Assembly: GCA_013265495.1 (NCBI GenBank)
Contig: MU057521.1
Span: 1,252,335 to 1,316,334, forward strand
Length of the DNA stretch: 64,000 nt
DNA from: Vicugna vicugna
Taxonomy: Eukaryota
Reading direction: 5' to 3'
This document shows, piece after piece, positions 3,507-46,516 of this stretch. Position numbers and translations under genes: made by a program. Every line of letters begins with the position of its first letter. Position 1 is the stretch's first letter. The notes beneath the pieces were generated by a model. It worked only from the letters and a program-made list of their open reading frames with translations, was not told the DNA's origin and made no database searches.

Positions 3507-3602
3507 GTGTCTCGGATTGCAGACAGTGAGAAGAGTGTCATGTTAATGCTGGGGCGCTGCCTGCCCCACATCGTTCCTAATGTGCTGCTGGCAAAGAGAG
3601 AG
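3507..3602 (+). CDS. RELCH: RELCH coding exon, 96 nt: VSRIADSEKSVMLMLGRCLPHIVPNVLLAKRE
   Basis: ttttctag|GTG...GAG|gtgaga; 32 open codons. Confidence 0.95.
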
Positions 3603-3751
3603 GTGAGACACATAAAAGTGTTTTCATCCCAGTAATCTCATCGTGTTGTCCATTTTTTGTCATTTTGAAGTTTAGTGTTATATTTTTATTTTGTTAAAGT
3701 CGATTACTTGCAATCATATTCTTACTTTTGTGCATGCATCTCTGCTCCTAG

Positions 3752-3775
3752 AGAATGGTTTTACACCTCTGTCAG
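3752..3775 (+). CDS. RELCH: Putative alternative 24-nt microexon, RMVLHLCQ
   Basis: tctctgctcctag|AGAATGGTTTTACACCTCTGTCAG|gtgagt; strong donor, phase 0/0 inside a phase-0 intron, no stop codon. Confidence 0.72.
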
Positions 3776-5739
3776 GTGAGTTCAGTAAAACTGCATGGTA
3801 TTCATGTTTTTCCAATTTTGCTGAAAGCATCATTAGCTTCTGCAACACTAACTATTACTGTAGGTCCATTTATGTTCCATGAACACTGTCTGTTTTTTAC
3901 ATTGCCAGTTAACTAATTAATTTTATCTCTGCTCTTGATATGATTTGTGATATATCTATAGAAACACTATTTGTATTGAAAATTAATAGGGACTAGTAAT
4001 GTAACTCTTTTCTTAAATGTACTTGTGGTTACCTATTCATTTTAGTTGTATTGTATTTGGCAGTAATTACACTTGTCTTATGATGATAGGATAGTTATAT
4101 TGACTACAATAACTTTTTAAAGTACCTTTTTTGTTTTTCTTGTAGCTAACCTGTTACCAACAAATGCTTTACATATCCAACATAGAGCAGCAAATATATT
4201 TTAGTACACATTGCCTGTGTTATAAACCATAAATACTGTAGAAAGTTATCTTTAGAGTTATATTTAGCCAATAGATTAATGAAAAGTTATCTGTAATTTC
4301 ATTTAAATGACAGTGAGTGGATTTATTTACAAACAAGTTTAATTATTTATTTGGATTATTCAACTTATGACATCAATTTTCCTTTCACAAATTTTTTTCA
4401 GTGGGTTAAGAATATTTTAGAATGTGTCATAAAAGTTTCTTCTGTCATCTTCTTGATATTTACCACTGGTTTTAATCATAAATCATGGGACCTACAGTAT
4501 GATAGATACACAGTGCACTGGCAAACCCGTATAAAGCTTATCCTTAATTATCTGTCTAGCCCAAGAAATTTGTACTGATCCTCAAGAAAGCTTACACGTA
4601 GAGCTTTAAAATTTTTATCCCTATAGGTATTTTTAATTTAAAAAAAGATAAACATGACTGTTTTCTTACTGATGGTTTTATTTTACCTAATATTTTAAAA
4701 CAGTTGTGAGATATTAATAAGTATGGAAATTTTTCTGTCTTGAAGGATCAGTGTCCAATTTCAGATTGTTTTGCAGTTCTGCCTGGCAGAATGGTGTTTG
4801 AGCTTCTTTTCCTTTTTTAGCTTGTAACAATCCGTGCAATGCATTAATGTTTGCATCCCTTTTACTATGTTTCCTTAATATAATCTTTAAAATATCATAG
4901 AAACCTAATTGTTATGAGATGCAGTCTAAGTTTTTTTATTTTAATGTTCCCCTTTTTTAATCATAAAAGACCCTACCACTAAAATCTGATTGTACTGCAT
5001 GAAGTATTTATACATTTGCATCATCAGTAATCAGATATAGTGTATATATGTATATATAAATATATAAACATATTTATATATACATATACATATGTATTTT
5101 ATTTGTGGTATGATGTTTACTTTCCTGGCTGGTTTTAAGTTTTTTATATTTAAAAATATTTATATACTTATAATTTCATGAAGAGTTGATTATTTATCTT
5201 TGTTTAATTATTTGTGCCTTATTCTGTTTTACCAGAAAATTTACCATTTATAATATGCCGGAGTTATATTCCCTCGAAATTAAATTAGTAAATAATGAAG
5301 TATATGTTTTGCTTTTGTATGAAACCAATCCCAGGGCATAAAAGGACAAAATTTTTATTTCATTTCATCTTTTGATATTGGATTACTTTTATTTGATGTT
5401 TTACCCTAGTTCCTTAAATCTATATTTTTTAAAAGGTCTTGTGATTGAAGGCTTTTGTTTTTTATTTCTCAAGTTTTATATATTTTCTTATCAGTATAAG
5501 CCTTTTTATTGATAATGTAAATACAATTAAAGTGTCCCTTAGTAGACTGATTAGCAGTATCCTAGATAATTAAATAAATAAAACATTTAAAATAAGATTT
5601 AAGAGTTTGATTAAATAAAGCATTTGCATGGTTTAACATCTTTTAAATATAAAATGATGTACAGCAAAAACTCATCTTCCCCTTTCCCTGGGCCACCATC
5701 CCACTGCAATAAATTTTATTAGCTTTTCAGTGTATTCTT

Positions 5740-13108: not shown

Positions 13109-13197
13109 GGGGAGAGTATAGCTCAGTGATAGAGTGAATGCCTAGCAAGCATGAGATCCTGGGTTCAATCCCCAGTACCTGCATTTAAAAAAAAAGT
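13109..13197 (+). mobile_element. tRNA-derived SINE (camelid Vic-1-like)
   Basis: GGGGAGAGTATAGCTCAGTGATAGAG (A box) ... GGTTCAATCCC (B box), A-rich tail, imperfect flanking duplication agaagcta(gta)aatatt. Confidence 0.85.
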
Positions 13198-15098: not shown

Positions 15099-15211
15099 GA
15101 GTTGATCCCTCTCATATTGTGTACAGCATGCCTACATCCTGAGCCTAAAGAGAGAGACCAGCTGCTCCACATACTTTTCAATTTGATCAAGAGGCCAGAT
15201 GATGAGCAAAG
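15099..15211 (+). CDS. RELCH: RELCH coding exon, 113 nt: ELIPLILCTACLHPEPKERDQLLHILFNLIKRPDDEQ(R)
   Basis: ttctttag|GAG...CAAAG|gttggt; phase 0 to 2. Confidence 0.95.
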
Positions 15212-35317: not shown

Positions 35318-37288
35318 GTAAGTTTATGCATTATTACTTTTAAAAAACAATTGAATCTCTTGGCTCCAGAAAAATACTTTATTCATGACATGCAAATTAT
35401 ATAAATAAATTAGCAAGTACAATTAAAAAGGAAAATGTATACTGTGAGGTCCTTGGTTTTACAGCTCTGTCAGATCTAATATCCTTCCCATGAGGTGGCA
35501 GTAAGATTACTCTTTGTCAGTTTGATTGTAAATATCTACCTTCACTGTAATCAAACTGACTGAAGGCTGAGCTTCTCAAACTGAGATTTGAACCATTGTA
35601 GGTTTGAAGTGGTGTATTCAGGATAGTGAACAGTAGAAAGTAAAGAGCATCCAATTCATAATTAGTTACTGAAAACTTTTAAAAATTAAAACAAATGTAA
35701 TCAAATAGAATGCAAGGTATACATATATGTTTTTAAAATGAAACATGAGATTTTAAAGAAACTACAGGCTTTAATGAGCAGCTCCAGCCCCTCTTTTCAT
35801 AGTTTTCACTCATCTGTCCTAAGAATTCTAGTTATAGCACCATTGGCATAAGAACTCATTTATGTGTGGATCCTAGGTCCCTGCATATTTTTTAACTTGG
35901 TTGATTTTGAATATATAAATAATTCTTATCTCAGTCCTACCTTAATGGTTTGATTTGAGTGATCTAGAAAACTCCATTTTGGGCTGTCCTCAGAGGTATT
36001 AGAGCATGAAAAAATGATTCCTTTTAAGTTTGAAAACAGTGAGAGTTTTTGGACAAATGCTTCCCAAAGTTTATATTTAATAGCTTTCTAAGGGGTTTAT
36101 GTTTGGAATACCTAATAGTTGGTATTATCTTTTTAGTTAGTTATTAATTCTGATGATAAATTAGTAAATAATATTTACATATTTTGGAAACTGATAGCTT
36201 TTAGGATTATTAGCTATGAATACTTAGCTGTTCATATAGGAAGTGATTATTAACCAATGTATATGCAGTCTACATCTATGAATTCAACTTAAGCTTGTTT
36301 CTAGCCTCAGATTTACCTCTCAACTCCTATAGTCACACTCAGCCAACATCAGTACTCCCAAAAGAAAAAGTTCCTCTTACCAAGAGACTAAACAAACCTC
36401 AAATACTACTAATTGATGTGAAAATGGAATTTTTGCTAAAAATTCCTTCAGGGCATTTAGTTAAATACATCTTTGCAACTCACTTATTTATTACTTTCTG
36501 AAAAGAACTTAAAACCATACAAAAATAAGGGGGAAAGTAATTTTTTAAAAATTGAGTACATAAAAGCAAATGTAAAGCACTTAAAACATTGCCTAAAAAT
36601 CAATAAATGAGGTGCTATAAATAACTACTGTTATTATCATCTCTGGAACTTTTTGAACATTATCCACACATGCTGCATGAGAAAATCTCTTACGTTACAT
36701 TAGTCAGGCACTAATGTTACAGGCACTCACCTGTGATTGGATGCTTTTCCTCCCTCTGCTTTACTTAGCCTCCCTACTGCATGAAAATAATCAGGGTTCT
36801 GTCCAGCTGAAAATCCTCATACAGGATGCAGGAAGAGTACTGGAAACTAGGTGGTATCCATGTCTGGAAGCAGGTTACATAATGTCTATCTAGTGCCTCC
36901 TGTCAGCTGTGTGCCTTTACATTTTACTGAATACTGCCAACTGAAAGAATGAATGTATGAAGACCTACTTCAGTGGGCACTTGGGAAAGTCTGAGAGAAA
37001 ACTCTGATTTCTGATTATGCAAATAAGAGCAAAGCATCTCATTTGGGTTATTAAAATTTTTCCCATCTATCAAAAATATTTATGCTAATGGCCCTTGTGA
37101 AAGTATTAAGTTTTGTTTTTACTACCACCAGTGGATATATATTTTAATTAAAATATTTGCCAAAGTAATGATAATATTTATTTGTAAGACTTGTAACCGG
37201 TTGGAATTTTAAATATAATTTGCATTGTGACTTTTTGCTTTACATTTATGGCATACTCAGATTTTTAAAATTATTTTAATGATTTTAG

Positions 37289-37368
37289 ATTCCTCAGCAG
37301 GAAATGGGGTCCTCACTAAAGCTACAGTCCCCATTTATGCAACAGGAGTCCTTACATGTTATATTCAG
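37289..37368 (+). CDS. RELCH: RELCH coding exon, 80 nt: SSAGNGVLTKATVPIYATGVLTCYIQ
   Basis: gattttag|ATTCC...CAG|gtaagg; phase 1 to 0. Confidence 0.94.
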
Positions 37369-45846: not shown

Positions 45847-45929
45847 CTGTTGGTGAAGGGGGTGAATGAAACTCTGGTAGCTCAGAGGGTTGTTCCTGCT
45901 CTCATAACTCTCTCCAGTGACCCTGAAAT
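45847..45929 (+). CDS. RELCH: RELCH mutually exclusive exon A, 83 nt: LLVKGVNETLVAQRVVPALITLSSDPE(I)
   Basis: aatcag|CTG...GAAAT|gtaagt; same length and phase (0 to 2) as exon B; 17/27 residues identical to it. Confidence 0.9.
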
Positions 45930-46433: not shown

Positions 46434-46516
46434 CTGACTCTTCGAGGCATGAGTGAAGCGTTAGTTGACAAGCGGGTTGCTCCGGCCCTTGTTACCTTGT
46501 CCAGTGATCCTGAATT
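46434..46516 (+). CDS. RELCH: RELCH mutually exclusive exon B, 83 nt: LTLRGMSEALVDKRVAPALVTLSSDPE(F)
   Basis: tttacag|CTG...GAATT|gtgagt; phase 0 to 2. Confidence 0.92.

Follow-up and report, generated by a model that had tools for sequence, protein, structure and literature searches.

The DNA analysed here, a window of 64,000 nucleotides (nt) from Vicugna vicugna, carries exons of a single gene in order and on one strand. A protein search with the exon that begins at window position 15099 gave 1207 matches, and those that bear a name are RELCH/KIAA1468. A tblastn search with a seal RELCH isoform of 1198 amino acids (P0115) placed residues 456–1159 of that protein on window positions 2411–60822 in 22 alignments, all on the + strand and including two that form a duplicated exon pair. 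By homology, the window is the middle and 3′ part of the mammalian RELCH gene. Between two of the aligned coding exons lies a third, very short one, and the elements around it are listed here with their position, strand and nature; L001 is a metagenome contig that is compared with the window below.

3507..3602, + strand: upstream RELCH coding exon (VSRIADSEKSVMLMLGRCLPHIVPNVLLAKRE), 96 nt, with 5′ splice site gtgaga
3696..3751, + strand: 3′ splice-site region of the intron, conserved, with candidate branch points, an interrupted pyrimidine tract and the closing AG at 3750–3751
3731..3736, + strand: upstream TGCATG, sharing bases with the first two TGC triplets; kept in L001
3752..3775, + strand: 24-nt alternative microexon, RMVLHLCQ, phase 0/0
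3776..3781, + strand: 5′ splice site GTGAGT, identical in L001
3792..3797, + strand: downstream TGCATG, candidate RBFOX enhancer, starting 17 nt past the last exon base
3847..3852, + strand: ACTAAC (QKI-like core), starting 72 nt after the exon; not conserved in L001
15099..15212, + strand: downstream RELCH coding exon (ELIPLILCTACLHPEPKERDQLLHILFNLIKRPDDEQR), 100% identical in tblastn to residues 523–560 of P0115

The original prediction, made from the letters of the sequence without database searches, correctly called a regulated exon of 24 nt here, and direct reading bore out its coordinates, its sequence and the positions of its motifs. The exon is AGAATGGTTTTACACCTCTGTCAG, with ctag before it and gtgagt after it; its codons (AGA ATG GTT TTA CAC CTC TGT CAG) contain no stop and translate as RMVLHLCQ. 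The upstream exon, which aligns at 100% identity with residues 483–514 of P0115 and corresponds to residues 509–540 of the 1216-residue human protein, ends in the whole codons GCA AAG AGA GAG (AKRE), and the exon from 15099, preceded by tttag, begins GAG TTG ATC CCT (ELIP); the microexon is therefore in phase 0/0 and keeps the frame, so that the predicted insertion of eight amino acids between AKRE and ELIP can be read at both junctions. Its length and its preservation of the frame agree with exons of the SRRM3/4 type, which measure 3–27 nt, and its final CAG together with GTGAGT matches the 5′ splice-site consensus at every position. The microexon also contains an in-frame ATG (3755–3757), at which a fish model (P0024, Xyrauchen X3, 682 residues) is predicted to begin; this start is probably an annotation artefact.

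A pair of splice sites at this spacing carries little weight of its own. The pattern YAG-N24-GTRAGT occurs three times on the two strands of the window, compared with 1.73 expected, and at least three times in 26 of 100 shuffled sequences; the bare splice-site architecture is not beyond chance. The case for the microexon as more than chance comes from conservation and from the protein models, rather than from motif counts.

The protein models contain both forms of the junction. Among the first 120 of the 1207 matches, the eight-residue insert lies between LLAKRE and ELIPL in 24, LLAKRE is joined directly to ELIPL in 74, and the upstream context is a different one in 22, which comprise genomic read-through ORFs and two models without exon 3507–3602; these classes were counted by hand from the printed rows, and one of the 24 insert models starts inside the insert. 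When residues 483–560 of P0115, insert included, served as the query, the 120 matches listed had 97–100% identity at 100% coverage, and the insert itself was read in 24 of them. The canonical human RELCH (Q9P260, NP_065905.2, 1216 residues) is without the insert, and a Pan paniscus model (X5, 1224 residues) that belongs to the same cluster of 318 members has it; the peptide of this model is identical to that of the window and sits at the same junction, whereas the translations of the window exons differ from the model at several residues (RLGSEV versus RLGYEV, for example). Isoforms from one species that differ by the insert alone were found in Phoca vitulina (X4, 1198 residues, versus X5, 1190 residues) and in Narcine (X1 versus X3). 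With both forms modelled in one species, as in P. vitulina, the 24-base exon is a real and alternative microexon of RELCH/KIAA1468, in agreement with the original prediction.

Conservation of the peptide and of the flanking introns

Across the models that carry it, the insert follows the pattern [RK]MV[LIMVA]HLCQ, in which only residues 1 and 4 vary. The variants read were distributed as follows.

RMVLHLCQ: placentals
RMVIHLCQ: koala
KMVLHLCQ: two birds
KMVMHLCQ: two frogs
RMVVHLCQ: cyprinids, a catfish, Astyanax and the electric ray Narcine
RMVAHLCQ: salmonid, percomorph and other spiny-rayed fish models

An emu model was 100% identical to the insert-bearing query, as taken from the alignment figure rather than from its peptide letters. 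The insert is found in six vertebrate groups (placentals, a marsupial, birds, frogs, teleosts and an electric ray), and six of its eight residues have stayed the same, with the first held to R or K, at least since rays and mammals last shared an ancestor. In 12 distant homologues with 26–64% identity, among them lamprey, hemichordate and wasp proteins, the insert is absent and the flanks are joined directly, and the motif that flanks the junction is nearly unchanged in all 12; a second lamprey model also lacks the insert. These alignments indicate that the insert is an addition, on record in jawed vertebrates only, and no remnant of an ancestral constitutive sequence. We also considered an origin before the jawed vertebrates and set it aside, as both lamprey models are without the insert, though isoform models may be incomplete.

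When the exon and its splice sites were searched for as a degenerate pattern, one metagenome contig, L001, matched, and nothing in the prokaryote-genome or viral contig collections. Judged by its sequence, L001 comes from a distant vertebrate and is the orthologous locus, and the comparison of DNA that follows uses this one non-mammalian orthologue, with identities counted by hand from the alignment. The upstream exon 3507–3602 is identical at 86 of 96 positions, all changes being synonymous, and the microexon at 22 of 24; L001 encodes KMVLHLCQ, as the bird models do. The intron is identical at 52 of 56 positions before the microexon (3696–3751) and at 23 of 24 after it (3776–3799), and both flanks are thus better conserved than the neighbouring coding exon. 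Most of the remaining intron can barely be aligned, apart from more conserved blocks farther downstream, and the upstream exon's own flanks are conserved for only about 12 bases, at its 3′ splice site. The bases kept in L001 include A3706, A3724, all three TGC triplets, TCTCTGC, the AG, GTGAGT and both copies of TGCATG. This pattern is the hallmark of a regulated alternative exon, and high conservation of an exon together with its flanking introns, seen here in one DNA orthologue, is also a property of SRRM3/4 microexons. The original prediction had proposed vertebrate conservation of the exon and its splice sites as a check; the exon is conserved from rays to mammals and the splice sites are kept in L001, as are the UGC-rich 3′ splice-site region and the TGCATG pair to which it had drawn attention.

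Regulation of the microexon

The 3′ splice-site region of the microexon resembles that described for neural microexons. Passages of PMC12871342 name UGC, placed upstream of the 3′ splice site, as the motif of SRRM4, describe neural microexons as having extended regions between branch point and AG, and report such microexon regions to be accessible rather than structured. In the window, TGC begins at 3731, 3735 and 3743 (−21, −17 and −9 from the exon start), and TCTCTGC occupies 3739–3745 in the pyrimidine tract before the microexon. Candidate branch points, from consensus reading of the sequence alone, are gattAct (A 3706) and ttcttAc (A 3724), which would put the conserved UGC triplets in an extended region between branch point and 3′ splice site of the kind found in SRRM3/4 microexons. 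The local RNA fold around the microexon is unremarkable (MFE −27.9 kcal/mol, z-score −0.49), in agreement with the accessibility reported in the same source.

SRRM4 overexpression, which the original prediction had suggested as an experiment, has already been published for a human exon of this gene. Supplement file 7 of PMC7935315 gives, for the 24-nt KIAA1468 event HsaEX1018737 (chr18:62232577-62232600), a PSI of 0 in HEK293 cells with GFP and 47.6 with SRRM4, in a list of 314 exons whose dPSI reached 25 or more in each of the two HEK293 replicates. File 12 of the same supplement gives 22.57 and 12.04 for this event in SRRM4-induced xenografts and 0 in uninduced ones; the event is missing from the ‘neurons’ sheet of that file. 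The PSI of 0 in the HEK293 controls of this supplement documents skipping in one non-neural line. HsaEX1018737 comes from the same gene as the window exon, is of equal length and is presumably its human orthologue; we base this equation on gene, length and the single 24-nt cassette, not on coordinates. An alignment of eight RELCH isoform models supports this equation, because it contains just one eight-residue cassette.

Whether the exon had been catalogued, which the original prediction could not tell, can be answered: it is already known as vast-tools/VastDB event HsaEX1018737, as an entry in a published SRRM4 target list, and as part of the isoform models that RefSeq and Ensembl give for many vertebrates. 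Searches for KIAA1468, Relch and 2310035C23Rik gave no match in those supplement files of PMC4387716, PMC7821500 and PMC9303857 that were covered, which are a part of each set, and a text search of the literature gave no paper that discusses a RELCH/KIAA1468 microexon, its control by SRRM4 or any function for the exon. Within a well-described class the microexon is unexceptional, and it is no new kind of element. With the SRRM3/4 neural programme it shares size, frame, conserved flanks and UGC between branch point and AG, and its presumed human orthologue is likewise responsive to SRRM4; however, that programme is one of neural inclusion, and neural-specific inclusion of the RELCH exon was not found in the sources searched. 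The neuron-specific microexon of CPEB4 is also frame-preserving, with 24 nt and eight residues, according to the abstracts of PMC12628316 and bioRxiv 10.1101/2023.03.19.532587, but it belongs to another gene and another structural setting, as the RELCH insert is modelled within a helix of a helical repeat.

SRRM4-type activation is the best-supported mechanism, because the human event responds to SRRM4 and the UGC motifs are conserved. We consider it highly probable that 3752–3775 is an alternative microexon of RELCH (KIAA1468) in jawed vertebrates that is activated by SRRM4 and adds eight residues within the Rab11-GTP-binding fragment of the protein. By default, 3602 would be spliced to 15099. 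Where SRRM4 (and probably also SRRM3) is present, as in neurons, it would bind the conserved stretch rich in UGC and UCUC that runs from the branch point to the AG at 3751, and the bound protein would help the spliceosome to pick out an exon not long enough for exon definition of the ordinary kind, probably assisted by the perfect 5′ splice site and by the conserved downstream UGCAUG of the RBFOX type. Of these steps, we infer neural restriction in Vicugna vicugna, as well as direct binding of SRRM4 and RBFOX to the motifs in the window.

A different weighting of the same motifs, which we consider improbable, would make the exon mainly an RBFOX-controlled cassette that is on where RBFOX is high, in neurons and striated muscle, with SRRM4 as a minor or artificial activator. 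A downstream (U)GCAUG is associated with activation by RBFOX, and an upstream copy usually with repression. The window has a conserved (U)GCAUG in the proximal downstream intron, as RBFOX exons do: this copy of TGCATG is at an enhancer position, 17 nt downstream of the microexon, inside the 3776–3799 block that is nearly unchanged in L001. TGCATG is not enriched across the window (36 copies, 29.55 expected), and with 20 copies on the + strand, or about one per 3.2 kb, two conserved copies 61 nt apart around the microexon are locally unusual. Set beside RBFOX-regulated exons, however, the RELCH exon has its second conserved TGCATG upstream, where RBFOX usually represses; this copy overlaps UGC triplets and so may be conserved for SRRM4 instead, although it could also be an RBFOX repressor site rather than SRRM4 UGC sites. 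Moreover, expression of SRRM4 was in itself enough to produce the change in PSI of the human exon in HEK293 cells recorded in the PMC7935315 supplement, and control by SRRM4 and control by RBFOX are not mutually exclusive. Help from RBFOX through the downstream UGCAUG is thus plausible within SRRM4-type activation, to judge from the motif and its conservation.

Far less probable still is that QKI, acting on the downstream ACTAAC, sets a glial or muscle pattern of inclusion. The original prediction had listed this element, 72 nt after the exon, as a QKI-binding site, and here it did not hold up: in L001 the position falls in a gap with different bases, although the blocks on either side are conserved. 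QKI exons have a conserved ACUAAY, ideally with a UAAY half-site nearby, and no UAAY occurs within about 20 nt downstream of 3847–3852; ACTAAC is also under-represented rather than enriched in the window (30 copies, 13 of them on the + strand, versus 39 expected). This ACTAAC is probably not functional. Finally, the notion of a chance AG...GT pair or of an annotation artefact that spread between automatic gene models and is unused in vivo, which could draw on a splice-site pattern no rarer than chance and on supporting proteins that are mostly automatic predictions, is hardly credible, contradicted as it is by a peptide with substitutions at two residues from ray to mammal, by intron flanks more conserved than the adjacent coding exon, and by the inclusion measured in human cells and xenografts in the PMC7935315 supplement.

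The insert in the RELCH protein

The eight residues enter between residues 540 and 541 of the 1216-residue protein and split IVPNVLLAKRE-ELIPLIL, a motif that is conserved across animals. Passages of PMC5940305 report that RELCH needs residues 497–779 to bind Rab11, that this fragment can bind Rab11a-GTP in vitro, and that OSBP binds residues 904–1142; the insert lies inside the first of these, the mapped Rab11-GTP-binding fragment of 283 residues.

We compared two AlphaFold2 models built from alignments of 79 rows, one of P0115 with the insert (mean pLDDT 75.8) and one of a protein without it (P0111, mean pLDDT 75.0). The helices around the junction are modelled as follows.

P0115, with insert: helix 490–509, loop 510–514, helix 515–534, which starts exactly at the insert
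P0111, without insert: helix 491–507, loop 508–512, helix 513–526

By this prediction the insert makes the second helix about six residues longer at its N-terminal end. Local confidence in the P0115 model is lowest at the insert, where it is moderate (block 511–520, pLDDT 70), and the alignment rows there are mostly gaps. In P0115 the second long helix (515–534) belongs to the run of helices that follows a low-confidence stretch at 371–446, so that the model agrees with the original prediction in placing the insert at the start of the HEAT-repeat region; Pfam detects HEAT and HEAT_2 matches, the first HEAT match lying later than the insert, at 593–679 of P0115. Confidence over residues of about 471–510 was 82, 88, 91 and 82 in the model with the insert and 66, 59, 67 and 75 in the skipping model, a difference that may be noise in this single pair of runs.

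Under SRRM4-type activation, inclusion would put RMVLHLCQ at this junction and make the following helix longer at its N-terminal end, and the likely effect would be a tuning of the Rab11-binding face or of a hinge to the N-terminal half of RELCH, which acts as a tether for cholesterol transfer out of recycling endosomes into the trans-Golgi. We propose tentatively, and as a rather unlikely outcome, that the microexon is a neuron-specific switch on the Rab11 interface of RELCH, which by splitting LLAKRE-ELIPL and lengthening the next helix would change either the affinity for Rab11-GTP or the geometry of the Rab11-RELCH-OSBP tether; any effect of the insert on Rab11 binding is conjectural. If this were true, neurons could use the insert to retune cholesterol traffic from endosomes to the Golgi.

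Other variable regions of the locus

Besides the eight-residue cassette, the eight aligned isoform models differ in four more regions: a 24-residue cassette, skipping of exon 3507–3602, a three-residue DSS difference and an alternative 3′ end. Two models (P0087 and P0104) skip the 96-nt exon 3507–3602 and join ...RLGSE straight to ELIPL; this exon, just upstream of the microexon, may thus also be alternative. The DSS difference follows from a tandem acceptor at 37280–37300, with sites 9 nt apart (ttttag, then ATTCCTCAG, then CAGG). Farther along the gene are two similar exons of 83 nt, 45847–45929 (LLVKGVNETLVAQRVVPALITLSSDPE) and 46434–46516 (LTLRGMSEALVDKRVAPALVTLSSDPE), each with its own AG and GT; a length not divisible by three means that they have to be mutually exclusive. 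Models from duck and koala (P0136 and P0182) contain the 46434–46516 form, and a TGCATG lies 16 nt upstream of it. The long intron between the microexon and the exon at 15099 contains a tRNA match on the + strand (13112–13183; Rfam RF00005, 47.7 bits), which from its sequence could be a tRNA-derived repeat, a tRNA gene or a pseudogene.
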